Position numbers and translations under genes: made by a program
In this document: piece by piece, positions 3,542 to 64,000 of the stretch
Layout of the letters: the number at the start of each line of letters is the position of its first letter
Position numbering within the stretch: the stretch's first letter is position 1
Notes under the pieces: generated by a model
Database searches by the model: none
Told to the model about the DNA's origin: nothing
What the model saw: the letters and a program-made list of their open reading frames with translations, nothing else
Assembly: GCA_030054035.1 (NCBI GenBank)
Contig: JASGCS010000001.1
Location: 342,280 to 406,279 of the forward strand
Direction of reading: 5' to 3'
DNA length: 64,000 nucleotides
Source: Candidatus Methylacidiphilales bacterium
GTDB taxonomy: Bacteria > Pseudomonadota > Gammaproteobacteria > JASGCS01

Positions 3542-5899
3542 TTAAAATCCTGACCCAATGGAAAATTGAAATTCTTGGATATTTGCTTTATCTTCTGGGT
3601 AATTTTTTAACGGTTTAGCGTAACTAAATAACAGAGGTCCGATTGGCGTTACCCATACCATTCCAATACCAATATCGTATCTTAAAGTGGCAAAATTAAA
3701 TGTAGAGTATTTTGAAGATAAATTTCCAGCATCGATAAACGCAACAATTCGTAAAGGGTTTTCACTTGGGGGAGCGTTACCAATCGCAGGTTTTTTAGGA
3801 TCAAAGTAAATTTCTAATGAGCTATATAGTGAAAAATCACCTCCAATTGAGTTACCAAAAACATCTTTTGGACCTAATCCATATGGTTCATAGGCTCTTA
3901 GATTTGAAATACCACCCAAATATTCCTTATCAAAAATTGGAAGTTCATCTAATTTTTCACCGTACTGATTTCTTTTAATATTTGAGTAAAGCAATCCTTG
4001 AGTAACAGAATGTTTTGTTAACAAAACAATTCTTTCACCTAACGGCTGGTAATACTTAAAATCTAAAGAATGTTTCAAGTACGAAGGATTGGTGTTTGAA
4101 TGATAAAGCGAAAAATTATAACTGAATTGAGAACCAATGTCTGGAAATAAAGTCCTGTTTCTAGTATCATGTGAATACGATAACCCTAGCGTTAAATATT
4201 TATACGTATTGCCATACGTGAGTACATAATTACTAAATTGGTCTGAAGTTGATCCAGCCGCTGATAACTTTTGATCTTTATAGCCAGGCAGCACGGTAAA
4301 ACTTGAATATTCAGTTATTGGGATGCTCCATCCAAAATTGAAAACCGAACTTCCTAAAAGGTATGGGACGATTGTAGAAACTGTGCTTGAGTATTTTGCC
4401 ACATTAATTTTAGATGTTGAGATTGAAGTAATAAAATCAATTCCGTCTTCAGTGAAATATGAAATTCTATAAGATGCGCTAGCTTGCTGCTGGACTTGGC
4501 TAAACCCCAATGATAATGAAATCGAGTCACCTGTATTAACAAAATTATCCCGCGATAAAGAAAAATTTAAATTTAATCTATTTGCCTGTGAGTATCCAAC
4601 CTGAAAAGAGAAATTTCCAGACTGTCTCTCTTGAACAGTAAATGTAACATCCACGAGATGAGAAATACCTGGTACTTTATCTAGAGTATATGAAACCTCA
4701 GAGAGATAGGTTAACCGTTGTAATCGTTCTTTTGATCTTTCAAGCAAGCTTTTGGAATAAGGCGCACCTTCAAACTGTCTCATTTCCCTACGCAATACAG
4801 AATCAATAACAGAATTATTATTAGCAAAAGTAATTCTTCTAACAATTATTTTACTTCCAGGATTTACTATAATTTTTAACCGGACAGATTTACTACTCTC
4901 ATCTAAAATGCTTGTGTATTTTGTTTCTGAGTAAGCGAATCCCATATCAGAAAGTAAAGAATTTATTGCATTAGTGCTTAATGTTAGTAGTCGTTGTGAA
5001 AAATATGTTTTATTTTTAATATATATAAACCTATGCAAATCATTTATTGAAAACTCAGACGATTCATAGTTAATTAAAATAGCATCAACTGATTCCACCG
5101 TATATCGATCACCCTCAAAGAGAGTAATAGAAATTTCAAGCCCGTCCCGCTCCGGAGTAAGAGTTACAATGGTTGATTTTATTTTAAAACGCAGGAAACC
5201 ATTATCAAGATACCATGATTTTAGAGCTTCAATATCACCTTCAAGCTTTCTCTTTGAGTATCGATTATTTTTATTTGCAGGATCAAGAATATCAGCAACT
5301 TGTAAAGAGAATAACTCGAGTAAATTAGATTTTGTATAATTTTTATTCCCGATTATGTTAATCCTCTTAATGATGGCAGGATCCCCTTCTGTTATTTGTA
5401 TAATAATTTTTTTACCACCTTGGCCAATATCTGTTATCTCTAAGTCAACTTTTGCATTGTATCTTCCTTCGTTGTAGTAAGCTTTTTTGATTTCTTTACC
5501 AATTACTTCAAGAATACTTTTATTGAATATTTCACCCTTAGCAATTTGGGCATTTTTTAGATTTTCTTCTAGAATTTTAGTCTCTATGAGACTATTGCCC
5601 TTTATTTCAACACCAACTATTGTAGGTCTTTCTTGAAGTTCAATATAAAGAATGGAGTTTTCATGTTTAATAATAATATCTTCAAAATACTTAAGCGAAT
5701 ATAGTTTTTGAATTAAAGAACCTAAAGATTGCTTATTAATAACACCTCTTTTTGGTAAACCAACCAAAGTCTCTAAATAAGAGGTCGGAATTCTAACGTT
5801 CCCTCTATAAACAATTGAGTTATATTCAAAACTCTCAGCATTTGAAAATGCTGGATTTAGCACACATATTAGGGAAATAGTTAAAAAAATTAAACGCAT
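3542..5899 (-). CDS. bamA: Outer membrane protein assembly factor BamA
   Basis: 785 aa, signal peptide, POTRA-like N-terminal region, C-terminal beta-barrel ending in aromatic residue (…IGSGF); synteny dxr-cdsA-uppS upstream. Confidence 0.9.
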   Translation of the reverse strand: MRLIFLTISLICVLNPAFSNAESFEYNSIVYRGNVRIPTSYLETLVGLPKRGVINKQSLGSLIQKLYSLKYFEDIIIKHENSILYIELQERPTIVGVEIKGNSLIETKILEENLKNAQIAKGEIFNKSILEVIGKEIKKAYYNEGRYNAKVDLEITDIGQGGKKIIIQITEGDPAIIKRINIIGNKNYTKSNLLELFSLQVADILDPANKNNRYSKRKLEGDIEALKSWYLDNGFLRFKIKSTIVTLTPERDGLEISITLFEGDRYTVESVDAILINYESSEFSINDLHRFIYIKNKTYFSQRLLTLSTNAINSLLSDMGFAYSETKYTSILDESSKSVRLKIIVNPGSKIIVRRITFANNNSVIDSVLRREMRQFEGAPYSKSLLERSKERLQRLTYLSEVSYTLDKVPGISHLVDVTFTVQERQSGNFSFQVGYSQANRLNLNFSLSRDNFVNTGDSISLSLGFSQVQQQASASYRISYFTEDGIDFITSISTSKINVAKYSSTVSTIVPYLLGSSVFNFGWSIPITEYSSFTVLPGYKDQKLSAAGSTSDQFSNYVLTYGNTYKYLTLGLSYSHDTRNRTLFPDIGSQFSYNFSLYHSNTNPSYLKHSLDFKYYQPLGERIVLLTKHSVTQGLLYSNIKRNQYGEKLDELPIFDKEYLGGISNLRAYEPYGLGPKDVFGNSIGGDFSLYSSLEIYFDPKKPAIGNAPPSENPLRIVAFIDAGNLSSKYSTFNFATLRYDIGIGMVWVTPIGPLLFSYAKPLKNYPEDKANIQEFQFSIGSGF

Positions 5900-5902
5900 A
5901 TT

Positions 5903-7099
5903 TTATCTTACTTTTTTTACAACTTCTTCGGTTTTAGCAAGGGTTTCTTTATAAAGTTCGATCAAATCTATAAAACTTGTTACTGATTTATTGGTATCAG
6001 TTACTACCCTTTCGATGATTGGAATGATTGCATTGAATGGTATTTTACCACTTAAAAATGAATCAACAGCAATCTCATTGGCTGCAGTTAACGCGACAGT
6101 TGAACAATCACCATTTGCAAGAGCCAGATAGCAAAGTGTGATAGATGGAAATCTAATTTGATCCACTTCTTCAAAACACATAGAGTTTAACACTTCAACG
6201 GTGATGCTTTTTTTATCTGAATTATTTAATCGTGTTTCAAATATTCCATAGGCTATAGGTATTTTCATGGTTGGATAATACATGTTAATCAATACACTTC
6301 CATCAACAAAAGATACAAATCCATGCACCAGACTTTGCCTGTGGATTAAAGTCTTTATTTGATTTGGTTTCAAAGTAAATAAACGGCAACACTCAATTAT
6401 TTCAAGGCCTTTATTTATTAAGGTGGCTGAATCGATAGATATTTTTTTACCCATTTTCCATGTAGGATGATTTAAAGCATCTGCTATTTTTACATGCTCA
6501 AGTTCTGATTTTGATAACGAAACAAAAGGGCCACCACTTGCTGTAATGGTAACTGTCTCAATTTCAGGGGAGCTCTTTAAACAGCTTCTCCATAGAGCAT
6601 TGTTAATACATTGATAAATAGCATGTGGTTCACTGTCAAGTGGTGTTATTCTTGCTTTTCCAAGTCTAACTGCATCAATAAAATAACTCCCACCAACAAC
6701 TAATGACTCTTTATTTGCAATCAATAGATGTTTGCCTCTAAGCGCTAACTGGTAATATAATTGAAGAAAATCAATCCCACTGGTAGCGCAAATAATATGA
6801 GTTACATGACTAGCGGAACATATATCTAGTATTTCAGATTGTTGGGTAACTATCTGACAAGTTAAATTTAGTTGTTTAATCAATTGCTTGCAAGGCTCTA
6901 CTGAATTTTGATGTGTGACAGCTAAATATTTTGGAGCTACCTTGGTTAACAAATGGCTTAAAGCATTCCAATTTTTATGTACTGACAAAAGTTCAATTGA
7001 ACATTTTCTTGTTTGATTGGCTAGAACTACTTCAATTGTTTGCACGCCAATAGATCCGCTTGCGCCTAAAATGGAAATACATAACTCAGTTTGTGTCAT
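5903..7099 (-). CDS. dxr: 1-deoxy-D-xylulose 5-phosphate reductoisomerase
   Basis: 398 aa; ILGASGSIG NADPH-binding N-terminus; synteny. Confidence 0.9.
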   Translation of the reverse strand: MTQTELCISILGASGSIGVQTIEVVLANQTRKCSIELLSVHKNWNALSHLLTKVAPKYLAVTHQNSVEPCKQLIKQLNLTCQIVTQQSEILDICSASHVTHIICATSGIDFLQLYYQLALRGKHLLIANKESLVVGGSYFIDAVRLGKARITPLDSEPHAIYQCINNALWRSCLKSSPEIETVTITASGGPFVSLSKSELEHVKIADALNHPTWKMGKKISIDSATLINKGLEIIECCRLFTLKPNQIKTLIHRQSLVHGFVSFVDGSVLINMYYPTMKIPIAYGIFETRLNNSDKKSITVEVLNSMCFEEVDQIRFPSITLCYLALANGDCSTVALTAANEIAVDSFLSGKIPFNAIIPIIERVVTDTNKSVTSFIDLIELYKETLAKTEEVVKKVR

Positions 7100-7111
7100 A
7101 TTGTAATTGGG

Positions 7112-7753
7112 TCAGATAAAAAAATAGAAGTAAAGTGGAGCAACAATAATTAGACTATCAAATCTATCTAAAAAACCTCCATGACCATAAAATAATTTTC
7201 CGCTATCTTTTACATTTGCCATCCTTTTTAATAAACTTTCTAATAAATCTGCTACAACAGCAATAATTGCCAAAAATAAAACTTTAAACATAACAACATA
7301 AGAAAAAGCAACATTATTTAGAGACATTAAAATTATAGTAACTAACACAACTGTACTTACGATACCAATTATTGCTCCTTCGACTGTTTTACCAGGACTA
7401 ATAAACGGTGCCAACTTTCGACGACCAAGGCTTTTTCCTCCTAGGTAACTCATCACATCACAACAAATTGTTAAGGCAAAAAGACCAAGTGCTTGTTTTA
7501 TATTACCAAGTAATAATATTCCGATACAGAATACCGACAAGGTGATCCATGAATATATAAAAAATAATAAAAATAATTTACTTTGTATCTGCATATTATT
7601 TTTTATTACAAGTGCGCTTACCTCAAATAAAAGTATAAAGAGTACGGTTAATAAAAATAATCCAGTTAATAACGTAGATTTAAAGTAGATAATTAAAAGA
7701 AAAATAAAAGTGAAGACTGCTGCACCTATGATTCGCTTTGCTAACTCGCTCAT
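7112..7753 (-). CDS. cdsA: Phosphatidate cytidylyltransferase
   Basis: Multi-pass membrane protein with C-terminal CdsA signature (GKSLGRRKLAP…SPGKTVEG…DSGKLFYGHGGFLDRFDS). The track ORF runs to 7870; I place the start at the internal Met at 7753, just past the uppS stop. Confidence 0.8.
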   Translation of the reverse strand: MSELAKRIIGAAVFTFIFLLIIYFKSTLLTGLFLLTVLFILLFEVSALVIKNNMQIQSKLFLLFFIYSWITLSVFCIGILLLGNIKQALGLFALTICCDVMSYLGGKSLGRRKLAPFISPGKTVEGAIIGIVSTVVLVTIILMSLNNVAFSYVVMFKVLFLAIIAVVADLLESLLKRMANVKDSGKLFYGHGGFLDRFDSLIIVAPLYFYFFI

Positions 7754-7760
7754 AATTGAA

Positions 7761-8432
7761 TTATAATATTTTGCCAAAAGTTCTTGTTTGCTTGCTATAC
7801 CATTGAATTGCTTTAGTAAATTCAATTTCATTAAATTCAGGCCACAATATATCTGTGAAATATAACTCACTATAGGCTAACTGCCATAATAAAAAATTAC
7901 TAACTCGTTTTGAACCTCCTGTTCTAATTAATAAATCTATATCTGGAATAGCGGAAGAAGGTAATAATTTTCTTATTTCTAACTCTGAGGGATTTATAAA
8001 TTTTTCATTTGTCGCACGCAAGATAGCTTGAGAGATATCCCAACGGCCACTATAATTAAATGCAATGGTTAAATCTAAATTGGTACCATTGCTGGTAATT
8101 TGGACAACCTTACTTAGTTCAGATTGATCTAGGTCGCTTAGTATTGATAGGTCACCTATAAACTTAATTTTAATACCTTGAGCTACTAATTGAGGTATTT
8201 CTTGAGCTATAGTATCAACAAGTAATTTACAAATTGCCAATACTTCGGGATGTGGACGTTGGTTATTTTCTATACTAAATGCAAATAACGTTAGATGTTT
8301 AATTTTTACACTAATTGCAGTAGAAATTACAGAGCGAACAACTAAAACTCCTTGGACATGTCCTTCACTTCTAAGTAACGAATTATGTTGTGCCCATCTT
8401 CCGTTACCATCCATTATAATCGCTACATGCAA
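7761..8432 (-). CDS. uppS: Undecaprenyl diphosphate synthase
   Basis: 223 aa; HVAIIMDGNGRWA cis-prenyltransferase motif; synteny. Confidence 0.9.
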   Translation of the reverse strand: MHVAIIMDGNGRWAQHNSLLRSEGHVQGVLVVRSVISTAISVKIKHLTLFAFSIENNQRPHPEVLAICKLLVDTIAQEIPQLVAQGIKIKFIGDLSILSDLDQSELSKVVQITSNGTNLDLTIAFNYSGRWDISQAILRATNEKFINPSELEIRKLLPSSAIPDIDLLIRTGGSKRVSNFLLWQLAYSELYFTDILWPEFNEIEFTKAIQWYSKQTRTFGKIL

Positions 8433-22067: not shown

Positions 22068-22144
22068 TGGCGGAGTGGACGGGGCTCGAACCCGCGACCC
22101 CCGGCGTGACAGGCCGGTATTCTAACCAACTGAACTACCACTCC
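22068..22144 (-). tRNA. tRNA-Asp (anticodon GUC)
   Basis: Reverse complement GGAGTGGTAGTTCAGTTGGTTAGAATACCGGCCTGTCACGCCGGGGGTCGCGGGTTCGAGCCCCGTCCACTCCGCCA; cloverleaf and anticodon loop CTGTCAC read by eye. Confidence 0.9.
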
Positions 22145-22148
22145 ATCT

Positions 22149-22223
22149 TGGTGGGTACTGTGGGATTCGAACCTACGACCCCCGCCTTGTAAGGGCGATG
22201 CTCTACCGCTGAGCTAAGCACCC
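22149..22223 (-). tRNA. tRNA-Val (anticodon UAC)
   Basis: Reverse complement GGGTGCTTAGCTCAGCGGTAGAGCATCGCCCTTACAAGGCGGGGGTCGTAGGTTCGAATCCCACAGTACCCACCA; close to enterobacterial tRNA-Val(UAC). Confidence 0.85.
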
Positions 22224-26019: not shown

Positions 26020-26643
26020 TTATACCGAACCTGCGTCGCCAGAAGCAACTCTAGTGCTCAAAACCTTATCGACAATACCATACGCACAAGCCTCAGTACT
26101 GTTAAGAAAATAATCTCTGTCAGTATCTTGTTCAATTTTTTGAAGAGGTTGTTCAGTATGCTCAGCCAATATAGTATTCAGCACAGCTTTTATTTTAATA
26201 ATTTCTTGGGCATGAATACTAATATCAGAAGCTTGGCCTTGAAAGCCTCCCAAGGGTTGATGGATCATTATTCTGGAATTGGGTAAAGCAAATCTTTTCC
26301 CTTTTTTACCTGACGCTAAAAGCAAAGCTCCCATACTTGCAGCCTGACCAATACATAGTGTGCTGATATCAGGTGAAATAAATTTCATAGTATCATATAT
26401 ACACATACCCGCAGACACCGATCCACCTGGAGAGTTTATATAGAGATAGATATCTTTTTTTGGATTTTCTGATTCCAAAAAAAGCATCTGGGCTACAACT
26501 ACATTCGCAACATAATCATCAATAGGCCCTACTAAAAAAATTAAACGCTCACGTAACAATCTAGAGTAGATATCAAATGCCCTTTCACCTCGTGAGGATT
26601 GCTCTACGACAATTGGAACATACTGTGAAAAAGTTTTATTCAT
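26020..26643 (-). CDS. clpP: ATP-dependent Clp protease proteolytic subunit
   Basis: 207 aa; catalytic Ser region GQAASMGA, His region IMIHQPLGG. Confidence 0.9.
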
Positions 26644-27686
26644 TTATTATTAGTATCTATGAGATCACTTAATTTAACTGGTTTACTGACTATCTTAACT
26701 CTATTAAATATATGGTCTACAAATTCTATTTCAAGGGCAATAGTAAAAAAGTAATTTCTCCAATAATCATTCTGCACTAATTGCCTTATGGCTTTTTCAG
26801 GATCTTGGGTGCTTTGTGCAGTTTGAGATATTAATTTTTTAATAACTTCTTGTTTTGGAATGATGTTAAAATTATTTACTATATGTTTCAAAATCCAGTC
26901 TGACTTTAATCGTTTCTCAATTAAAGTTTTAGTAAAGGAATCCAGTTCAACATGCTTATCACATGGCTCTTCGGCTTTATGAGTATGACCTGCTTTTTCA
27001 TGTAATTCATGTCCTAAACGACGCTCTTCAGTTGTTATTGCTTTAGCTAAGATTGAAGGAGGTAGTGAAAATTGAAATTCGTTAAGTAAAGCTTCAAGAA
27101 TTGATTCTTTATTTTTCTGAAACAATTTAAATTCGACTTCTTGGAGTAACGTTTGCTTAATTGCTAAATCAAATTTTTGCTCGGCGTCATCACCAATAAA
27201 GCCCAATTTTTCAAATGCTATTTGACTTTGATCATTACCATGTTCTTTAATAACTTTTTCTTTCATTGAAGTAAAATCGCTTTGATTTATTGAGTACTCA
27301 AACTTGGTAATTTCTAAGCTTTCTAATGAAAGTAAATTAATTTCGGGTGAAAGTTCATAAAAATAATCTATGCTTAAAATTTTATTTTTTATATCTAGTT
27401 TTGGATTATACATCGGCTGAGTTGCAAGAACAATGTTTTTATTTGAAGCCAAATAATCGCTCCAACATCGTAAGGAAATATCTTTAATTGCTTGATCTTG
27501 TAAGGTTTCGGTATATTTCTTTAGTAATATTTCATCTGGAACTTTACCTTTTCTAAAACCATCAATCGCAACTGTTTGTTTCAAATGGACTAGCTGTTTT
27601 TGCATAGATTTATCAAACTCTTCCCAAGAAACAGAAAATACTACTTCTCTCTCTAGTTGCGATATTTCTTTAACTTCATAACTCAT
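26640..27686 (-). CDS. tig: Trigger factor, apparently lacking the central PPIase domain
   Basis: N-terminal ribosome-binding signature GFRKGKVP present; 348 aa versus about 430 aa in typical bacteria; tig-clpP-clpX-lon synteny. Confidence 0.8.
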
Positions 27687-27699
27687 ATTATTTCCTAGT

Positions 27700-27784
<85 letters not shown>

Positions 27785-27796
27785 TTTAATTCAAAC

Positions 27797-27872
<76 letters not shown>

Positions 27873-27903
27873 ACTTTTTTTTATTTTACCCCTAATTATA
27901 GAA

Positions 27904-27980
27904 TGGGGTGAGCGATGGGGCTCGAACCCACGACCACTGGATCCACAATCCAGAGCTCTACCGACTGAGCTACGCTCACC
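27904..27980 (-). tRNA. tRNA-His (anticodon GUG) with G-1
   Basis: Reverse complement GGTGAGCGTAGCTCAGTCGGTAGAGCTCTGGATTGTGGATCCAGTGGTCGTGGGTTCGAGCCCCATCGCTCACCCCA; extra 5' G typical of tRNA-His. Confidence 0.85.
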
Positions 27981-27995
27981 ATTGTATCAATAGTA

Positions 27996-28071
27996 TGGCG
28001 CGCCCGGCAGGAATCGAACCTGCAACCACCGGCTTAGAAGGCAGGTGCTCTATCCGTTGAGCTACGGACGC
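27996..28071 (-). tRNA. tRNA-Arg (anticodon UCU)
   Basis: Reverse complement GCGTCCGTAGCTCAACGGATAGAGCACCTGCCTTCTAAGCCGGTGGTTGCAGGTTCGATTCCTGCCGGGCGCGCCA; resembles argU-type tRNA. Confidence 0.8.
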
Positions 28072-28079
28072 ATGTATTA

Positions 28080-28156
28080 TGGTCGGGGCAGAGAGATTCG
28101 AACTCCCGACCCTCTGCTCCCAAAGCAGATGCGCTACCAGACTGCGCTATGCCCCG
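28080..28156 (-). tRNA. tRNA-Pro (anticodon UGG)
   Basis: Reverse complement CGGGGCATAGCGCAGTCTGGTAGCGCATCTGCTTTGGGAGCAGAGGGTCGGGAGTTCGAATCTCTCTGCCCCGACCA. Confidence 0.85.
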
Positions 28157-28182
28157 AGTATAATATCGTACGATATTATACT

Positions 28183-29082
28183 ATGCCTAAAAATAAATCA
28201 ATTGATAGCATTATGCTTGATGGAAATTTTTGTTCAGAGCAGATTCTAAAGGAACTACGCACTTGGATTAAACAATTACTTTTAAATGGCATTAGATTGC
28301 CATCTTTAACTGTGTTTCTAATTGGTGATAATGACGCGAGTAAAATTTATGTGCAGAAAAAAATACAAGCTTGCAACTCATTAGGTATTCAATGTAATTT
28401 AAAACAATTTTCAAATAATATTAAAATTGAAGAAATATTATCAGAAATTGATTATTGCAACACTGACCAAAACACTGATGGAATACTTGTACAATTACCT
28501 TTGCCAAGCCACTTATCCACACTTGAAATCTGTTCACGAATTTCTCCCTCTAAAGATATAGATGGTTTTAACCCTCAAAATGTTGGGAGGTTGGCATTAC
28601 GATCTCCGCAGTTAAGACCCTGTACCCCCAAAGGAGTGATGGCACTTTTAGATTTCTATAAAATTTCACCTGAATCAAAACATGCAGTAGTGGTTGGAGT
28701 ATCAAATCTAGTTGGAAGACCGCTTGCTTTGGAGCTTTTATTAAAGGGCGCTACAGTTACTTGCTGCCATAGATTAACCAATAAGTTAGAAGAGCATGTC
28801 AAAAAGGCTGATTTGCTTTGCGTTGCAACTGGCAAAAGAAATATTATTGATTGTGAGTGGATTCCAAGGCAATGCACAGTAATAGATATTGGCATAAATA
28901 GAGATAGTAGCGGTAAAATTGTTGGCGATCTTGATCAAGAGAAATTGGTAGGAAATGTATACGCATACACACCTGTACCTGGAGGGATTGGGCCAATGAC
29001 GGTAACAATGGTGTTAGTAAACACACTCGAGGCACATAGCACACACCTAAATTTACAGTTTATATCTCCAACTAGTACCTAA
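28183..29082 (+). CDS. folD: Bifunctional methylenetetrahydrofolate dehydrogenase / methenyl-THF cyclohydrolase
   Basis: FolD motifs (DGILVQLPLP, DVDGFNPQNVGRL, PCTPKG, VGRPLALELL, TPVPGGIGPMTV). Start set at the ATG at 28183; the track extension to 28045 overlaps two tRNA genes. Confidence 0.85.
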   Translation: MPKNKSIDSIMLDGNFCSEQILKELRTWIKQLLLNGIRLPSLTVFLIGDNDASKIYVQKKIQACNSLGIQCNLKQFSNNIKIEEILSEIDYCNTDQNTDGILVQLPLPSHLSTLEICSRISPSKDIDGFNPQNVGRLALRSPQLRPCTPKGVMALLDFYKISPESKHAVVVGVSNLVGRPLALELLLKGATVTCCHRLTNKLEEHVKKADLLCVATGKRNIIDCEWIPRQCTVIDIGINRDSSGKIVGDLDQEKLVGNVYAYTPVPGGIGPMTVTMVLVNTLEAHSTHLNLQFISPTST

Positions 29083-40093: not shown

Positions 40094-41302
40094 CTATTTG
40101 AATCTCTTTTGATGCTCTGTAATAGTTACTGTTGATAATGATGCTATTTGCTCAACAACAGGATGTGAGTTATTAGTAATTTTTGAATGTGTTGTAAATG
40201 GGCTAGAATTAGAATACTCTTTTGCACCCCAACTTTTATTTACTAATGCTATTCGTAGTATAGAGTTTATAACGGCAGATTTTCCATTTGGATAATACGA
40301 ATAATTTTTTCTTGTGTCAAGTACAATTTGCATAAACACTTGTAATAAATGTGGCTGCAATTTTTGAAGCATCTCAGCAATTAAATAATGAGTATTATTT
40401 GTTTGATTAGAATAAGGCGCTAACGATGCTTGTTGCAATTCTTGAATTATAGTATCAAGTATCTGCAAAGGTTCACCGGAATAAGTGTCAATCATTTTAA
40501 TAGCTGATTCAAAATCACTTTTGGAATCATTTACTACAAATTGAAAAAACAATTGCACTAACGATTGAGATGAAGGGCCTAAGATAGTTTTAACAGACTC
40601 TAAAGTAATTCCAGTATCTGAAGCAAATAAAGCTGTTTCCAAAATATTTAGAGAATCTCTAATGCTTCCATTTGCAGCCTCAGCAATTGCAATAAGAGAT
40701 TCATTAGTATAATCAATTTTTTCATTCTGTAAAACCTTCGAAAGAACTGAAACGATCATATCAATTGGAACTGGTCTGAAATGAAATAGTAGGCATCTCG
40801 ACCTAATAGTTTCAGGTATCATTTCTAACTCAGTTGTGGCAAAAATAAAAACTAGATATGGCGGAGGCTCTTCTAGAGTTTTTAGTAGAGCATTAAAACT
40901 ATGTTTTGTTAGCATATGAACTTCGTCTAATAAAATTATTTTTTTTCTACTTATTGACGGTGGATAAATTGCAGTTTCCAGTAACTCTCTAGTTTCTTCG
41001 ACCTTGGAGTGTGAAGCAGCGTCTAATTCAATAAAATCGATATAAGAATTTTCATCACAAGAAATACAATTTCTGCACTTTAAACAAGGTGTAGGTGTGA
41101 TCCCATTTTCACAATTTAAACTTTTTACCAATATTCTTGCGAGGCTAGTTTTTCCAACTCCTCTAGTGCCTGAGAATAAATACGCATGGTGAACTTTTTC
41201 TACTTCAAGCGATTTGGAAATAGGGATAACAATGTGCTCTTGCCCGACCATATCAGTCATAATCTTTGGTCTATATGTTCTTGCAAGCGCAATGTGATTC
41301 AT
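40094..41302 (-). CDS. dnaX: DNA polymerase III subunit gamma/tau, gamma-length only
   Basis: 402 aa; Walker A GTRGVGKTS, zinc module CLKCRNCISC, SRC motif; ends directly before recR with no tau-specific C-terminal domains. Confidence 0.85.
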   Translation of the reverse strand: MNHIALARTYRPKIMTDMVGQEHIVIPISKSLEVEKVHHAYLFSGTRGVGKTSLARILVKSLNCENGITPTPCLKCRNCISCDENSYIDFIELDAASHSKVEETRELLETAIYPPSISRKKIILLDEVHMLTKHSFNALLKTLEEPPPYLVFIFATTELEMIPETIRSRCLLFHFRPVPIDMIVSVLSKVLQNEKIDYTNESLIAIAEAANGSIRDSLNILETALFASDTGITLESVKTILGPSSQSLVQLFFQFVVNDSKSDFESAIKMIDTYSGEPLQILDTIIQELQQASLAPYSNQTNNTHYLIAEMLQKLQPHLLQVFMQIVLDTRKNYSYYPNGKSAVINSILRIALVNKSWGAKEYSNSSPFTTHSKITNNSHPVVEQIASLSTVTITEHQKRFK

Positions 41303-57678: not shown

Positions 57679-58311
57679 TTACTCCTTTTTTAAAAATCCA
57701 ACACACACATAATATCGTTCTTTACTTTCTTTGCGACTCGAATCAGGCTTACAAGGTTTTACTTGTTTAAACAAAGACTTTAATAAAGTAAAATTCTGAG
57801 TTGAGTTTTCAGAATCAAATATCTTAATAATCAAATAACCATTTTTTATTAAGCAACAAGAAGTTATAAAGAGCACCTCTTTGATTAATGTGTCAAATCT
57901 TAAATTATCATATTCTTGAATTCCACTAATATTTGGTGACGCGTCGCAAAGTACCACATCAAATAATTTATTGCTCCGAACATTGTTAATTTCCGCCAAA
58001 CACTCATCTGAACCAAAGTTTCCATTTATAACAACATGGTTGCTGTTTAATTTTTTCATTGGTAATAAGTCTACACTTACGAGGGTTCCCGTTACAATTT
58101 TTTTCAAGACAAAACAACTCCATCCGCCAGGTGCTGCACCTAAATCCAAGACATGGGAATTGGGTTTTATAAACATATGGGTATTATTTAAATCTTCTAA
58201 CTTAAAATACGCTCTTGAGACCAGCCCTTGTTGTTGAGCCTTCTTAACGTAGTGATCGCTTTGTTGTCTTTGTTTCCATCGACTTGAACTTGATTTTGAA
58301 GAAACTGCCAT
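57679..58311 (-). CDS. rlmE: 23S rRNA (uridine-2'-O)-methyltransferase RlmE (FtsJ)
   Basis: 210 aa; SAM-binding VLDLGAAPGGWS; upstream of ftsH. Confidence 0.9.
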   Translation of the reverse strand: MAVSSKSSSSRWKQRQQSDHYVKKAQQQGLVSRAYFKLEDLNNTHMFIKPNSHVLDLGAAPGGWSCFVLKKIVTGTLVSVDLLPMKKLNSNHVVINGNFGSDECLAEINNVRSNKLFDVVLCDASPNISGIQEYDNLRFDTLIKEVLFITSCCLIKNGYLIIKIFDSENSTQNFTLLKSLFKQVKPCKPDSSRKESKERYYVCVGFLKKE

Positions 58312-58322
58312 AGTTATACAAA

Positions 58323-58790
58323 TTATGGAACTCTTTCAATAGCCACAATTTCCAAAATTGAGTCTATAAAAGTGATCTCATCTCCAATTTTCCTACCTAT
58401 TAACAATCTTGCAAAAGGTGAAACGATAGAAATAAAATTTTTTGATATGTCAGCTTCGACATCTCCCACTATCTTATAGCTCTTACTCTCGTTATTTTTT
58501 TTATTTTTTAGTGTAACAGTTGTTCCAAATACAATCTTGCCGTTATCTGGAATTAAACTAATATCAATTATTTGCGCACTCGATAAAATTGATTCTAGTT
58601 CATTAATTCTCCCCTCTATAAAGGATTGTTTTTCTCTAGCCGCGTGATATTCAGCATTTTCTTTAAGATCTCCCATCGCACGAGCTTCCGCTATTGCCAT
58701 ACTGATTTTCGGACGGTCGGTTGTGATTAATTTAGCAAGTTCTTCCCTGAGAATTGCACAACCTATTTTCGTTATTGGTTTGCGTTCCAT
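58323..58790 (-). CDS. greA: Transcription elongation factor GreA
   Basis: 155 aa; N-terminal coiled-coil with acidic tip region ([16 protein letters not shown]), C-terminal FKBP-like domain. Confidence 0.9.
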
Positions 58791-58815: not shown

Positions 58816-61800
58816 TTATAGTTTTCTTGGTTTACAAGTGTCACTGACTGATAAGGCTCGGCATGTAGCATACGATCCAGGAATAGTAGTCGTGATAGGA
58901 ATATGTAGCAATAATGCTCTCCTTCTTATGGTGAAAGAATCAGCAATAGATTGTCTGCCTTCCGTAGTATTAATAATCAGGTCAATTACTCCAGAATCAA
59001 GCAATTCCAAAATATGCGGTGAGCCTTGACTCACCTTGTTAATTTCTATACAAGGAATTCCAGCTTCATTAATTATTTGAAAAGTGCCTTTAGTTGCATA
59101 AATTATATAATTATTGGCATGTAACAATTTAGCTAATGGCACACAGTGAGATTTAGTGCTATTACTAAGACTGATAAACGCATTCCCTGATTTTTTTAAT
59201 TTTACACCTGCAGCAAGTTGGGCAAGTGCAAACGCCTCTTCAAAGGTTTCTCCACGACCCATCACTTCTCCCGTTGATTTCATTTCAGGACCTAATAAAA
59301 TATCGGAGGAGTTAAATTTAATAAATGGAAATATAGATTCTTTAACGCAGTACAATTTCTGCTGGGAAACCCCGTCAATAATTGATGTAAGGTCCTTTAG
59401 CTTTTTTCCTCCCATAATAAAAGATGCGTATTTAGCCAGTGGGTGTCCCGTACTCTTTGAGACAAAAGGTATAGATCGAGAAGCTCTGGGGTTTACCTCT
59501 AATAAATAGATTTGAGAATCTTTTAAAGCAAACTGAATATTTACAAGTCCAATCGCTTTAATTGAACGAGCTATCAAAGTAGCTTGATTGCGTAACTCTT
59601 GTTGTGTTTCAATAGGTAAAGAAAATGGAGGTATGGAACAAGCAGAATCTCCAGAATGCACACCAGCACTTTCAATATGCTGCATTATTGCAGGAATAAA
59701 AACCTCTTCCCCATCAGTAACTAAATCAATATCTATTTCGATAGCGTCTGAAAGAAATCTATCTAAAAGTAAAGGTTTGTCTGAAGCTATTCTAAAAGCA
59801 TTTCTAGCAAAAATTTCCAAGTCTTCGATACTATAAGCAATTTCCATTGCTCTACCACCTAAGACATATGATGGTCTTACCAACAAAGGAAAGCCAACAA
59901 TCTCTGATCCTTTTAGCGCTTCTTCTATTGTGACAGCAGTAGTATTTACAGGTTGAAGTAACCCTATCGAGTTTATTAATTTTTGAAACAACTTCCTGTC
60001 TTCGCACATATCAATTGTTTCACTGCCTGAACCTAGAATAGAGATTCCGTGATCAGCTAACTGTTGTACTAGTTTTAGAGGAGTCTGCCCGCCAAATTGG
60101 ACGACTATTCCTAATGGATTCTCTAAACAAACCAAAGAATAAATATGTTCAAAACTAATTGGCTCAAAATATAATGCATTTGATAAATCATAATCCGTTG
60201 AAACAGTCTCTGGATTACAATTTACCATAATTGTATAATAACCAAGTTGTTTAAAGGCCATTAATGCATGGACACAACAATAATCAAATTCAATTCCTTG
60301 TCCAATTCTATTTGGACCACATCCAAGTATTATTACTTTAGGTTGATTTATTTTAAACTGCAACTCGTTCTTTCCAAAATATGAAGAATAACAATAATTT
60401 GTTTCAGTATCAAATTCAGCCGCACAGGTATCAATTCGCTTATAAACGGGAATTATTTCAAATTTAACTCGTAGCTCTCTGATTATTGAAGGTGAAGTAT
60501 TCAACAGTGTCGCTATTCGCGTATCGGTTAATCCAGATTGCTTAGCCTTGGAAAGCAAATCTTGAGTAATTTCCGATAGAGCACAAGCTGATAGTTTAAT
60601 TTCTAAATCTATTACATCTTTAATATTTCTTAGAAACCAAGGGTCTATAGAAGTTAGTGAGTAAATGGTTTCAAGATCAATCCCTCTCCTGATCGACTCA
60701 GCTAAATACCATAATCTTTGCGATGATGGTCTGCTAATTTTTTCAAATAATACTTCATTTGAAACGATTTCATTTTGTTCGATAGGGCTTTGCAACCCAT
60801 CTCTATCTATTTCTAAACTTGTAATTGCTTTAAGTAATGATTCATTAAAAGTTGTGCCAATTGCCATCACTTCACCAACTGATTTCATTTGTGTACCCAA
60901 CTCATCAGCAGTGTTAGAAAATTTTTCAAAATTAAACCTTGGTATTTTTGTAACGACATAATCAATAGTTGGCTCAAAAGAAGCGGGTATCTCACCAATG
61001 GTAAGATTGTTTTTTATTTCAATTAAACTATATCCCACTGCCAATTTAGCGGCAATTCGTGCTATAGGATAGCCTGTTGCTTTTGAAGCTAGCGCAGATG
61101 ATCTCGAAACTCTGGGATTCATTTCAATTACGAACTGTTCGCCTGTTTTCGGTTGGACGGCAAACTGAACATTAGAACCACCTGACTCAATACCAATTTT
61201 TTTCATTATCTCTATCGTTGAGGTTCTCATTAGTTGATATTCTTTATCTGTTAAAGTTTGGATAGGAGCAACAGTAATTGAGTCTCCAGTATGAGTTCCC
61301 ATAGGATCAAAATTTTCTATTGAACATACTATAATGCAATTATTTTCTTTATCACGGATTGCTTCAAGTTCAAATTCCTTATAGCCAATCATTGATTGTT
61401 CAATGAGCACTTGTTTTGTTTGAGATAAAAATAAACCATGCTTTACAATTTCAAGTAATTGTTGCTGATTAAATGCTATACCACCTCCAGAACCTCCTAA
61501 TGTATATGATGGTCTAATGATTATTGGGTAACTAAATTCCTTAGAAAAATCTAATGCTTCCTTCACAGAATTGACGATTCTTGACTCAGGACAACGAAGT
61601 CCTAATTCACTCATCGCTTGCTTAAATAAATTTCTATCTTCAGCCATTTTTATGGACTGAGATTTAACCCCAATCATCTCAATCTGTAAATCATTAAGAA
61701 TTCCTTCCTCATCTAATTTCAACGCAAGATTAAGGGCAGTTTGACCACCCATGGTAGGGAGCAATGCGTCTGGTTTTTCAATTTCTAATATTTTTTTTAC

Positions 61801-62019
61801 GTGATTAAAATCTAGGGGTTCTAAATAAATACTATCAGTAGTAGTGAGATCTGTCATTATTGTGGCAGGATTAGAGTTAATTAAAGAAACCTTAAAACCA
61901 TCTTCCTTGAGTGCTCTGCAAGCTTGGACGCCTGAATAATCAAACTCTGCGGCTTGTCCTATAACAATTGGTCCAGAACCAATTATTAGAATGTGATTAA
62001 TATCATTTCGTCTTGGCAT
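58816..62019 (-). CDS. carB: Carbamoyl-phosphate synthase large subunit
   Basis: Duplicated ATP-grasp halves; [22 protein letters not shown]-terminus. Start set at Met 62019; the track start is 62028. Confidence 0.95.
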
Positions 62020-63097
62020 TTTTGTCAATTAAACTCTTAAATTCATTAAAAATATATTTAAAATCATGGGGGCCTGGATTGGCTTCAGGGTGACCTTGGA
62101 TAGCTATTAAAGGGGCTGTAGCTGAAACAAATCCTTGCAATGAGCCATCAAACAAAGATCTGTGAGTTGCAATTAGCGATGATGTGAGGGTTGTCTCCAG
62201 AATCTCAAAACTATGATTTTGACTCGAAATTACACTTTGGTGAGTTCTTAAATCTAAAATTGGATGGTTAATACCGTGATGTCCATATTTCATTTTTTTT
62301 GATTTAGCTCCTAATGCAAGTGCAATAATCTGAAAACCCAAACAAATTCCAAGCAAGGGTAATTTATGCGAGACACAATAATGCACTATAGGATGAACAT
62401 AGTTACATGGTTCTGGGTCCCCGGGTCCGTTTGATAAAACTACCCCAACTGGATCATTGCTAAGCAATTCATCTAATGTTGTTTTTGCAGGAAAACAAAC
62501 TACTTTGAATCCGAGAGTTGCTAAAAAATGTAATATTGATTTTTTGACCCCCAAATCTATAACAGCAATAATTTTTTTATTCGTAGACTCAGGGTTAAAA
62601 TAATATTTTTCCTTAGTTGTTACTTGAGAAGCTAAATCTAAACCTGATAATCCTTTATAATTCCTTAACGCATCATACGCGTCGTCTAAATCAGAATTAG
62701 TACGACAGTCCAAGCAAGCTCTTAAAGAACCATGAGTTTTAATTAATTTAACTAAAAATCTGGTATCTACGCCTTCTACAGCTGGAATGGAATTCTTGAT
62801 AAGAAAAGAGGATAGGCTCGTTAAACATCTCCAACTACTAGGTTGATATGTGTACTTGTGTACCAACAAGCCGCTATTATGAATTATATTTGATTCATTA
62901 TCTTCTAAATTAATACCTGTATTACCAATATGGGGATAAGAAAATACAATGAACTGGCCCTTATATGATGGGTCAGTGCAAACCTCTTGATACCCGCTCA
63001 TAGCTGTATTAAACACTAATTCACCTAGAGCCATCACGGGAGCACCAAAGCTGATGCACTCTATGATAATATTCTGATCAATGATTAATTTTGCCAT
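62003..63097 (-). CDS. carA: Carbamoyl-phosphate synthase small subunit (glutamine amidotransferase)
   Basis: GATase class I catalytic triad context (GICLGFQ, HPE); N-terminus aligns from Met 63097 (MAKLIIDQ…[13 protein letters not shown]); track start is 63118. Confidence 0.9.
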
Positions 63098-63899
63098 TGT
63101 ATTGTGGGTAAAACTCATCTATCCAGTTTAATATTTGTTTGCAATTTTCGAATCTATCATCTGGATTTTTAGCTATACATAATTGCAGAAAATTATCAAA
63201 CGGTGATTGGACATCTATAAATTTGTCATCACTATTAATGAGCTTAGTTTTTAATACTTCTTCTATTGTAAGATCGTTAAATAATTTTTTACCGGTAAAT
63301 ATTTCATAAAAGACGCAACCCAAACTATATATATCAGTACGCTCGTCATAACATTGCAATAAAGCTATCTGTTCAGGGGCAAGATAACTAGGAGTTCCAA
63401 TAACAGTACCTGGTTTGGAACGTAGTTTTATATTATCTCTTTCAATTGAAATTCCAAAGTCAAACAAACAAAGTGATCCATCTTCACGCAAGCCAATATT
63501 TGTTGGATTTAAATCTAAGTGTAAAATACCCCTTTCATGAATGTAATTTAATGCCGTGACAAGTTGGATCAAATAAATAATTGGATCATACTTAACCTGA
63601 TTAAAATGTAAGAAATTTTTCAGATCCCCTTTTGCTAGATACTCTGTAACCAAAAATATAACGCTTTTAGTCACTCCATAATCATACAGCTTTACTATAT
63701 TGCTGTGTTCTAGTAAAATCAACATTTGGACTTCATGAAACAAACGACCCTGATCATTTCTAGTATTAGGTAATTCATCTCTCTCAACACATTTAATTGC
63801 AATTTGAAGTGAGTCTGAATTTCTAGTGCCTAGAAAAATATTTCCATGTGAACGATTGGGCAGTAGTCCAGATGTGGTGTAACCAGGTATCTTTAACAT
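63078..63899 (-). CDS. Eukaryotic-like (Hanks-type) Ser/Thr protein kinase, kinase domain only, atypical catalytic loop
   Basis: 273 aa; subdomains in order: IAIKC (II Lys), HEVQ (alphaC Glu), HLDLNPTN (catalytic loop), DFG, GTPSYLAPE, DIYSLGCVFYEI; no TM, PASTA or FHA modules. Confidence 0.7.
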   Translation of the reverse strand: MLKIPGYTTSGLLPNRSHGNIFLGTRNSDSLQIAIKCVERDELPNTRNDQGRLFHEVQMLILLEHSNIVKLYDYGVTKSVIFLVTEYLAKGDLKNFLHFNQVKYDPIIYLIQLVTALNYIHERGILHLDLNPTNIGLREDGSLCLFDFGISIERDNIKLRSKPGTVIGTPSYLAPEQIALLQCYDERTDIYSLGCVFYEIFTGKKLFNDLTIEEVLKTKLINSDDKFIDVQSPFDNFLQLCIAKNPDDRFENCKQILNWIDEFYPQYNGKINH

Positions 63900-64000
63900 T
63901 TATTTAACGATATTTTACCATTGTTGCGTTACACATAATGAATACCATTCTTTTTTACTTCCGCCAAAATGTTTTGTAAGTAGCGTCGCAGCTTTTGAAG

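Follow-up and report, generated by a model that had tools for sequence, protein, structure and literature searches.

Gene order around the kinase

The stretch of DNA analysed here (64 kb, hereafter the window) carries a gene for a small protein kinase on its minus strand, between rsmI and the carbamoyl-phosphate synthase genes carA and carB. The features of this locus, in the direction in which the genes are read, are as follows.

63915..64000, minus strand: 3′ end of rsmI (TP_methylase), truncated by the window end (L082 gene table and sequence)
63078..63899, minus strand: kinase ORF, 273 aa, ATG start to TGA stop, a single ePK/Hanks-type kinase domain
63078..63118, minus strand: stretch where the end of the kinase ORF runs into the beginning of carA, 41 nt from ATG 63118 or 20 nt from ATG 63097
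62003..63097, minus strand: carA, carbamoyl-phosphate synthase small subunit (CPSase_sm_chain and GATase), immediately downstream of the kinase
58816..62028, minus strand: carB, large subunit, an ORF in the same tightly packed gene string that overlaps the carA stop

The rsmI gene ends in a TAA 15 nt before the kinase ATG. At the other end of the gene, the length of the overlap depends on the start assigned to carA: the longest carA ORF (ATG 63118) gives 41 nt and the ATG at 63097 gives 20 nt. The second start is favoured by the ortholog alignments, in which the CarA alignments begin at residue 3-8, and the 20-nt overlap that it produces is identical to the one in the orthologous loci L083 and L084. 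The kinase overlaps carA by 20-41 nt in three of the four genomes that carry it, which bears out the placement given in an earlier sequence-only reading of this DNA, namely directly upstream of carA and across its start. A kinase-carA fusion or frameshift was ruled out, since carA has its own ATG in a different frame at all loci.

The kinase-carA overlap suggests that the two genes are translationally coupled. A sequence scan found no terminator-like site between the kinase, carA and carB, and the promoter/terminator scan returned no promoter-like matches above chance at the kinase locus. From the spacing and the lack of terminator-like sites, we infer that the kinase is co-transcribed with carAB.

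The same gene order recurs throughout the family. All four members sit between rsmI and a carA-carB-greA-rlmE-ftsH block, and outgroup genomes contain the carA-to-ftsH block without the kinase. The surrounding sequence is a compact stretch of housekeeping genes at 33% GC, in agreement with the compact genome context that the earlier reading had described, and no partner phosphatase or FHA protein is encoded within the 64-kb window. The low-GC genome also has signs of reduction, such as overlapping genes and a trigger factor that lacks the PPIase domain.

Domain content and catalytic motifs

In a Pfam profile search, the protein scored 149.8 bits with PF00069 (Pkinase; cutoff 31.7, E=1.3e-43), residues 17-258 of the 273 being aligned to profile positions 11-259 of 263, and no second domain was found. 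Its predicted structure has the bilobal kinase fold, to which PknB fits as well as eukaryotic kinases do; the best sequence matches in the PDB are the eukaryotic kinases ULK1, PLK4 and Aurora. We found no transmembrane segment (maximum Kyte-Doolittle 19-residue mean, 1.0) and no signal peptide-like segment in the sequence, and neither the predicted model nor sequence comparison revealed N- or C-terminal extensions on the kinase core. The protein ends ~10 residues past the core, its ortholog P0004 ends ~3 residues past the last core helix (αI), and the tails are not conserved in the family. The product is thus the minimal, bare Hanks-type kinase without sensor, transmembrane or PASTA segments that had been proposed, and, judging from its sequence, it is most likely cytoplasmic.

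The profile comparison suggested in the earlier reading likewise placed the protein with the protein kinases. The Kdo and Kinase-like profiles scored 12.7 bits (cutoff 21.3) and 15.5 bits (cutoff 25), the Bud32 and UbiB models 28 bits (cutoff 125) and 12.6 bits (cutoff 488), and there was no APH or RIO match. ABC1 gave a partial match of 28 bits over 74 of 244 profile positions, which is not specific because two canonical relatives of the kinase, P0316 and P0317, give the same. Membership in the RIO, Bud32, ABC1-UbiB, Kdo-WaaP or APH families was rejected, as the best profile match lies with none of them.

The motifs of the kinase domain are positioned as follows.

63837..63866, minus strand: degenerate Gly-rich loop, residues 12-21 (LLPNRSHGNI), with GxGxxG replaced (alignments with orthologs and canonical relatives)
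63792..63803, minus strand: subdomain II IAIK with the β3 Lys K36, kept and invariant (ortholog and relative alignments)
63732..63734, minus strand: αC Glu E56, kept and invariant (ortholog and relative alignments)
63498..63521, minus strand: catalytic loop H127-L-D129-L-N131-P-T-N134 (DNA read directly; aligned to ULK1 HRDLKPQN)
63372..63461, minus strand: activation segment, D147-F-G to A-P-E176, full length at 30 residues (ULK1 and ortholog alignments)
63153..63155, minus strand: subdomain XI Arg R249 in NPDDRF, invariant (ortholog and relative alignments)

Most of the residues that define an ePK are in place, specifically the β3 Lys, αC Glu, catalytic Asp, Mg-binding Asn, DFG Asp, APE and subdomain XI Arg. 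K36, E56, H127, D129, N134, D147-F-G, T169, A-P-E176, D189 and R249 are invariant in all four family members. In the activation segment, R160-S-[KR]-P-G-[TS]165 is conserved across the family; T165 aligns with ULK1 T180, T169 is the conserved GT of Ser/Thr kinases, and the structure model has a pLDDT of 78-79 across residues 151-170.

Three elements that handle phosphate are absent together, namely the Gly-rich loop, the HRD Arg and the catalytic-loop Lys. In place of the LGxGGxxxV of its relatives, the protein has LLPNRSHGNIF at the Gly-rich loop site, within a predicted β1-loop-β2 hairpin (strands at residues 7-12 and 20-26 of the structure model). The orthologs have LPDCDYD, LPQKYNN or LPRKNNK there and also lack GxGxxG, while L13-P14 is invariant across the family. 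In the catalytic loop, the HRD Arg is replaced by Leu128 and the Lys by Asn131, with the catalytic Asp and Mg-binding Asn kept, so that HRDxKxxN is lost. Both substitutions are invariant, and all four members have HLD[LI]NP[TA]N.

These departures, which the sequence-only reading had noted as a non-canonical catalytic loop and a non-consensus Gly-rich loop, hold in alignments with ULK1, orthologs and relatives as well as in the DNA itself. The reverse complement of 63498..63521 is CAC TTA GAT TTA AAT CCA ACA AAT (HLDLNPTN), and on the same strand 63453..63461 gives GAC TTT GGA (DFG). A phmmer alignment to ULK1 sets HLDLNPTNI opposite HRDLKPQNI, DFG opposite DFG and GTPSYLAPE opposite GSPMYMAPE. 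Since the motifs are in register in this alignment, the motif reading is not a misalignment. The earlier reading had also allowed that orthologs at this locus might carry a canonical HRDLKPEN; the orthologs beside carA instead keep the non-canonical loop.

Family, conservation and nearest relatives

About 15 billion proteins include three orthologs, at 40-53% identity. The kinase belongs to a four-member orphan family that is confined to one uncultured, deep-branching gammaproteobacterial lineage. The best domain outside the family scored 152 bits, compared with 468 within it, when the hits of an exhaustive HMM search were re-scored per domain; summed domain scores had put giant multi-kinase proteins on top. 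Among 275 related domains, ~18% were non-RK and only ~2% had Asn in place of the catalytic-loop Lys. A scan of GTDB genomes with the family alignment gave at least 80 loci, and the matches listed were all at or below 35% identity, with no kinase beside carA or rsmI among them. Scanning JGI metagenome DNA for the pattern ILHLD[LI]NP[TA]N[IV]G produced no match, and the sole match to HLD[LI]NP[TA]N[IV]G, antisense to an NRPS gene, was rejected as a chance match. We found no mention of the sample or protein accessions in the literature.

The conservation of the kinase is comparable to that of its housekeeping neighbours. Its pairwise identity of 39-52% exceeds that of RsmI (31-46%), LpoA (30-40%), RlmE (38%) and FolP (40%) and lies just below that of CarA (48-54%), in a comparison of four sequences only. 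This similarity indicates purifying selection at the housekeeping level, gauged against neighbouring genes because synonymous sites are saturated at 39-52% protein identity. The kinase gene has the GC and GC3 content of its neighbours, whether the genome is at 33, 37 or 49% GC. A decaying pseudogene was ruled out, given an ORF that is intact and conserved in four genomes. The genomes that carry the kinase and carAB in this order have diverged to 73% FtsH identity.

The nearest canonical sequence relatives are two short gammaproteobacterial kinases, P0316 and P0317, from the metagenome-assembled genome GCA_040905025.1. They are nearly bare domains that share an N-terminal M-I-I-P-G-Y with the kinase and are 28-31% identical to it over ~95% of its length (values that depend on the alignment). 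In contrast to the kinase, they have a canonical GKGG Gly-loop and HRD[VI]KPAN, and they do not lie beside carA or rsmI. P0317 also has a C-terminal hydrophobic anchor, which is absent from the kinase here. Both score 171-172 bits against the family profile, compared with 468-475 bits for members. The bacterial eSTKs PknB of M. tuberculosis (PDB 1mru) and PknB/Stk1 of S. aureus (4eqm) differ further, as the kinase has no transmembrane helix, PASTA or sensor part, no GxGxxG, Leu for the HRD Arg and Asn for the catalytic-loop Lys. The PknB/Stk1 PASTA equivalog model (NF033483) matched the kinase part only, at 137 bits against a cutoff of 450, which places the protein outside that family.

With Leu128 at the HRD Arg position in all four members, the protein is a non-RD kinase. 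Residue 152, which we take to correspond to PKA K189, the usual helper in binding the activation-loop phosphate, is I, F, H or L in the family and is never basic. Known non-RD kinases normally retain the catalytic-loop Lys and the Gly-rich loop; the kinase shares with them the loss of the HRD Arg but lacks these two elements as well. An identical HLDLNP.N catalytic loop occurs in a betaproteobacterial kinase-HDOD protein (L021, 5974..7788; HLDLNPNN), which is probably an independent occurrence. That protein has 604 aa and a C-terminal HDOD domain, is 30% identical to the kinase, has a GRGTQG loop and DFD for DFG, and is encoded in an unrelated context in a 67% GC genome. Altogether, we read the protein as a non-RD kinase that descends from bacterial kinases; it is a variant, if an unusual one, within a well-known class of enzymes and no new kind of system.

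Possible roles of the kinase

The reading that we lean towards, and hold to be somewhat probable as a whole, is that of a real, selectively maintained, soluble, single-domain Hanks-type kinase that is vertically inherited, transfers phosphate, works inside the cell and is tied to carAB. In the course of events that we envisage, an ancestor of the lineage would have acquired an ordinary gammaproteobacterial Ser/Thr kinase, or relocated one of its own, into the rsmI-carA slot. There it would have lost any C-terminal anchor and had its Gly-rich loop replaced; HLD for HRD and Asn for the catalytic-loop Lys would have become fixed, and the gene would have been inherited vertically ever since. It would be transcribed with rsmI-carA-carB and translationally coupled to carA.

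From the invariance of the Lys36-Glu56 pair, Asp129, Asn134, DFG, APE, the αF Asp and Arg249, we infer that the product binds ATP/Mg and passes phosphate to protein Ser/Thr. It would work as a non-RD kinase that does not depend on docking of an activation-loop phosphate, and reduced or altered phosphate handling is probable; the motif pattern points to an enzyme that still binds ATP and is probably weakly or atypically active. Such a kinase would probably stay inside the bacterium and have a regulatory housekeeping role there, with its expression linked to that of carAB; a functional link to CarAB itself is speculative. If it is active, it would show that a Hanks-type kinase can dispense with all three of the missing phosphate-handling elements, which are usually treated as near-essential, and at 273 soluble residues it would make a very small study model for such catalysis.

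A pseudokinase that binds ATP but is catalytically dead or nearly so is a possible but clearly less probable reading. Such a protein would have been kept for what it binds and not for phosphotransfer, either as a scaffold or by acting allosterically on a partner such as CarA/CarB or RsmI. Catalysis could be very weak or absent, since the three missing phosphate-handling elements are not offset by a conserved basic residue: the family alignment shows no such residue in the Gly-loop region, where P0002 has none at all. The invariance of K36, E56, D129, N134 and D147 at 39-52% identity, which a pure scaffold would not need, and the intact activation segment and P+1 loop (GT..YLAPE) argue against it. 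By sequence, a pseudokinase is a protein in which at least one of the β3 Lys, HRD Asp and DFG Asp is absent (PMC12599244). All three are present and invariant here, so that the possibility raised in the sequence-only reading stands as a matter of activity and falls by the usual definition. The bacterial ActPs1-3, GLW, CP1, DYD and DLHK families resemble this kinase in that they combine a degraded nucleotide-handling motif with the STK fold, and CP1 and DLHK, like it, are cytosolic without a transmembrane region; however, these families lack at least one of K/D/D and are mostly multidomain (PMC12599244), whereas the kinase here keeps all three in a bare domain. An inactive protein would represent a type of bacterial pseudokinase that the standard K/D/D sequence rule would miss.

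We consider it unlikely that the protein is an effector exported into eukaryotic host cells through type IV or type III secretion, as with CstK and LegK, although the sequence-only reading had leaned that way. A soluble kinase domain that stands alone, encoded in a compact low-GC genome with reduction signs, would suit an effector, as would best PDB matches that are eukaryotic, and the conserved R-x-[KR]-x-x-[ST] around T165 resembles a basophilic host-kinase site. Nevertheless, inheritance of the gene is vertical, among housekeeping genes in four diverged genomes; its GC and GC3 are native, and it bears no signature of horizontal transfer. Its nearest relatives are bacterial, and PknB matches its fold no less well than eukaryotic kinases do. 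There is no disordered terminal extension that could hold a T3SS or Dot/Icm signal (least of all in P0004), no secretion gene was found within the 64-kb window or at related loci, and the LegK1 model (NF043056) scored 32 bits against a cutoff of 550. CstK of Coxiella burnetii (CBU_0175) is a Dot/Icm-translocated minimal kinase of 246 aa, the sole kinase in its genome (10.1101/611707). Like the kinase here, it is a small, soluble, gammaproteobacterial Hanks-type protein without a transmembrane domain, but it is described as having GLG where DFG is expected, together with an unusually short activation loop (10.1101/611707), compared with DFG and a 30-residue segment in our protein. No CstK-like match appeared in homolog searches with the kinase, and its resemblance to CstK and LegK1 goes no further than the common fold.

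A little less likely still is a dedicated partner of CarA/CarB, which would phosphorylate the synthase or bind it stoichiometrically and thereby control the supply of pyrimidine and arginine precursors. The kinase would then be translated in step with CarA from the overlapping reading frame, and its catalytic centre would have to work without the Gly-rich loop, HRD Arg and catalytic-loop Lys. In that case eukaryotic CAD, with its regulation by phosphorylation, would have a bacterial counterpart, and the fixed overlapping position before carAB is a hint of kinase control over bacterial carbamoyl-phosphate synthesis.

It is very improbable that the kinase serves in anti-phage defence like PD-T4-6, Stk2 or MAD6, which would mean that it phosphorylates many targets on infection. 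PD-T4-6, too, consists of one kinase gene, of about 300 aa, and the PADLOC profiles mad6 (183 bits) and PD-T4-6 (164 bits) match nearly the whole protein. These are generic kinase models, however, and the NCBIfam MAD6 equivalog (NF047741) scored 107 bits against a cutoff of 460. In four diverged genomes the gene keeps its place in an operon-like row of housekeeping genes and not in a variable island, and no defence genes adjoin it.

We give equally little credence to a repurposed ATPase or small-molecule kinase of the RIO, Bud32, ABC1/UbiB or APH-like kind, which might act on a metabolite from the pyrimidine or arginine pathway. The HxDxxxxN loops of these families also lack the Lys, and the HxDxNPxN loop of the kinase matches this Lys-less Brenner-type motif; weak partial ABC1, Bud32 and Kdo matches cover the catalytic loop, and the gene adjoins carAB. 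These partial matches score at or below the cutoffs, however, and are given by canonical relatives as well, and the ePK parts that deal with protein substrates are intact, namely the GT..APE P+1 loop, the αF Asp and the subdomain XI Arg, which pairs with the APE Glu.

Whether its product is active or not, the gene marks a gammaproteobacterial lineage that is still undescribed and for which the NCBI label Methylacidiphilales looks wrong.

Domain identity and catalytic motifs

The kinase gene reads as a complete frame in the window, and its product matches the Pfam protein kinase domain over residues 17-258 (149.8 bits against a cutoff of 31.7, E=1.3e-43), and the protein thus consists almost entirely of a kinase domain. 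Hydropathy and profile searches found neither a hydrophobic segment nor an extra domain, in agreement with the minimal, bare kinase proposed in the sequence-only reading. Control profiles for non-protein-kinase families gave weak or absent matches: Kdo reached 12.7 bits (cutoff 21.3), APH and RIO did not match in the profile search, and a partial ABC1 match is given equally by canonical relatives. By score, fold, and seven of 10 canonical features, the protein belongs to the Hanks/ePK superfamily; the three features that it fails are the Gly-loop, the HRD Arg, and the catalytic Lys. The positions used below are as follows.

63078..63899, minus strand: kinase open reading frame, 273 codons, start ATG, stop TGA
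63498..63521, minus strand: catalytic loop HLDLNPTN, codons read directly
63453..63461, minus strand: DFG motif, codons read directly

A phmmer alignment to solved structures places the ULK1 segments HRDLKPQNI, DFG, and GSPMYMAPE opposite HLDLNPTNI, DFG, and GTPSYLAPE of the kinase. Together with the direct codon reading, this shows that the motifs had been assigned correctly, with no misalignment. The Gly-rich loop is likewise non-consensus as first read, with LLPNRSHGNIF in place of the LGxGGxxxV of relatives.

The core is intact (Lys-Glu pair, catalytic Asp, Mg-binding Asn, and DFG), the activation segment has its full length, and the ePK-specific substrate-binding apparatus is present, namely, GT..APE, the alphaF Asp, and the subdomain XI Arg, which pairs with the APE Glu. 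In all four family members, K36, E56, H127, D129, N134, DFG, T169, APE, D189, and R249 are invariant, Leu128 and Asn131 are kept, and GxGxxG is missing, with L13-P14 invariant in that region. The unusual loop is a fixed, maintained character of the family. Four cysteines (C144, C195, C241, and C253) are also invariant in the family, for which a redox or metal role is possible; C195, in SLGC, does not vary in the 15 sequences of alignment A4 either, and C144 (directly before DFG), C241, and C253 are family-specific.

Family, locus, and ancestry

Among 5.8 billion clusters, a word-indexed search picked out one identical protein (NCBI MDI9347267.1, whose source MAG is labelled Methylacidiphilales) and three relatives, which are 53, 49, and 40% identical; the next protein is at ~30%. 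In a profile search of the same clusters, the four members scored 468-475 bits and the next protein 172 bits. HMMER run exhaustively over 1.84 billion representatives gave no further member (best outside domain 152 bits after local per-domain re-scoring), DNA-pattern scans of JGI metagenomes gave no true match to the catalytic-loop peptide, and none of the matches listed in the GTDB scan exceeds 35% identity to the family. Altogether, these searches leave a family of four known members. Ranked by whole-protein score, that exhaustive search is headed by giant proteins (P0168-P0177; 1,500-7,165 aa) with 4-10 kinase domains in tandem, and several of them have HCDIKP or HLDIKP loops.

All four genomes carry the kinase at the same locus, 8-22 nt downstream of rsmI and followed by carA-carB-greA-rlmE-ftsH-folP-glmM, and all retain the non-canonical loop, not the canonical HRDLKPEN that the sequence-only reading had named as contrary evidence. 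Three of the loci extend far enough to show the divergent lpoA-yraN-diaA genes upstream of rsmI. The kinase stop is inside carA in three of the four genomes, with a 63-nt spacer in the fourth. The overlap with the start of carA noted earlier holds, being 41 nt for the longest carA frame or 20 nt from the ATG at 63097, the start favoured by ortholog alignments and the one that gives the same overlap as in the related loci L083 and L084.

In the two outgroup genomes nearest by FtsH (69% identity), the block carA-carB-greA-yhbY-rlmE-ftsH is present; an LTD-domain gene and glnS lie upstream of carA, and both the kinase and rsmI are absent there. Among the 80 GTDB kinase loci listed, none has carA or rsmI adjoining the kinase gene, and neither is adjacent in the closest canonical relative. 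Therefore, the arrangement is lineage-specific. The outgroup yhbY, on the opposite strand between greA and rlmE, is missing there in the window (57679..58790, minus strand) and in the related locus L001.

To set the kinase against its neighbours, pairwise protein identities were computed among the four genomes.

Pairwise identity among the four genomes
LpoA: 30-40%
RsmI: 31-46%
YraN: 36-41%
RlmE: 38%
Kinase: 39-52%
FolP: 40%
CarA: 48-54%
GreA: 60%
CarB: 61-69%
FtsH: 73%

By these values, the kinase changes at a pace typical of a housekeeping enzyme. In the genomes with 33, 37, and 49% GC alike, both its GC and its GC3 stay close to those of the adjoining genes, which speaks against a recent arrival by horizontal transfer. 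Among canonical kinases, the nearest relatives are short gammaproteobacterial proteins that have the M-I-I-P-G-Y start in common with the family and carry a normal GKGG loop and HRD[VI]KPAN; one also has a C-terminal membrane anchor. This relationship suggests that a bacterial kinase lost its anchor and had its active site remodelled, rather than that a eukaryotic gene was captured.

Proposed working and alternative readings

We propose that the kinase keeps ATP/Mg binding and would phosphorylate protein Ser/Thr. By its motifs it is a non-RD kinase, and it would be expected to behave as one, since the Arg that would dock an activation-loop phosphate is missing and the beta9 position lacks a basic residue. 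Phosphate handling is probably altered or slow, because neither the Gly-loop clamp nor the gamma-phosphate Lys is present and the family's Gly-loop region holds no conserved basic substitute. T/S165, within a conserved R-S-[KR]-P-G-[TS] motif and aligned with ULK1 T180, could be an autophosphorylation site.

The main rival, an ATP-binding pseudokinase or scaffold, is possible but rather unlikely. The conserved triple loss (Gly-loop, HRD Arg, and catalytic-loop Lys) would fit it, as would the rarity of K-to-N loops (~2% of 275 related domains, often with HRD Arg loss too), but all catalytic residues are invariant, which argues for chemistry. The described bacterial pseudokinase families (ActPs1-3, GLW, CP1, DYD, and DLHK) each lack at least one of the beta3 Lys, HRD Asp, and DFG Asp (PMC12599244), whereas our kinase retains all three and so falls outside both these families and that definition.

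The earlier suggestion of a secreted effector found no positive evidence and is doubtful: synteny with housekeeping genes, native GC composition, missing terminal extensions, and differences from the effector kinases LegK1 and CstK all run contrary to it. The active kinase that we favour would instead be cytoplasmic, given the lack of signal peptide, TM segment, or terminal extensions, and the spacing and overlap suggest co-expression with carAB. A sequence scan found no terminator-like site between kinase, carA, and carB, and promoter-like matches are at chance level. Any functional link to CarAB is purely speculative, and we give little credence to a dedicated CarAB regulator with an unorthodox catalytic centre. 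A defence kinase, to which only generic PADLOC matches point, is contradicted by the fixed housekeeping context and is very improbable; equally so is an ATPase or small-molecule kinase, which the Lys-less HxDxxxxN loop might suggest but the intact protein-substrate apparatus opposes.

The kinase is not a PASTA kinase, a homolog of LegK or CstK, or an equivalog of MAD6. Its HLDLNP.N loop recurs in an otherwise unrelated betaproteobacterial protein, so the loop change alone is not unique. That protein (locus L021, MAG Ga0077526, 5974..7788, plus strand; 604 aa, N-terminal kinase and C-terminal HDOD domain) has HLDLNPNN, DFD for DFG, and a normal Gly-rich loop, and its R-to-L and K-to-N change is a probable independent case. 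Another non-RD, Lys-to-Asn kinase joins a cNMP-binding domain to a kinase with HQDINPRN (Nitrospirota MAG061, locus L073, 1376..2911, plus strand), with a Metallophos phosphatase gene directly after it. Our kinase stands out for its conserved motif combination on a bare domain, for belonging to a very small orphan family, and for its fixed, overlapping place in front of carAB.

Source organism and other window genes

The annotated window genes are all housekeeping genes in gammaproteobacterial order, at a uniform 33% GC. FtsH is 73-79% identical to that of three relatives and ~69% identical to that of Gammaproteobacteria such as Thiotrichales, Sedimenticola, and Competibacteraceae. This similarity and the orders lpoA-yraN-diaA / rsmI and secG-tpiA-glmM-folP-ftsH-rlmE-greA-carBA place the source organism, as far as the sequence tells, in an undescribed, deep-branching lineage of Gammaproteobacteria, and the MAG's Methylacidiphilales (Verrucomicrobiota) label probably stems from a binning or labelling error. 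One relative has a 1.82 Mb contig carrying a cytochrome bc1 operon.

Signs of streamlining, in line with the compact, eroded genome described earlier, are overlapping genes and a trigger factor without a PPIase domain. Specifically, the 348-aa trigger factor (26640..27686, minus strand) has Trigger_N at residues 1-142 and Trigger_C at 176-326, with no space between them for the central FKBP-type domain; a streamlined genome seems to have lost this domain. DnaX (40094..41302, minus strand; 402 aa, DNA_pol3_delta2 plus lid) is of gamma length, apparently without the C-terminal tau domains, and rseP is not at its usual place between bamA and dxr (3542..7099). Two tRNA clusters lie on the minus strand, with five genes at 27703..28156 and two at 22071..22223. 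The longest folD frame (28045..29082, plus strand) overlaps the last tRNA of the former, and translation of folD probably starts further in, around residue 58, at the beginning of its Pfam match.
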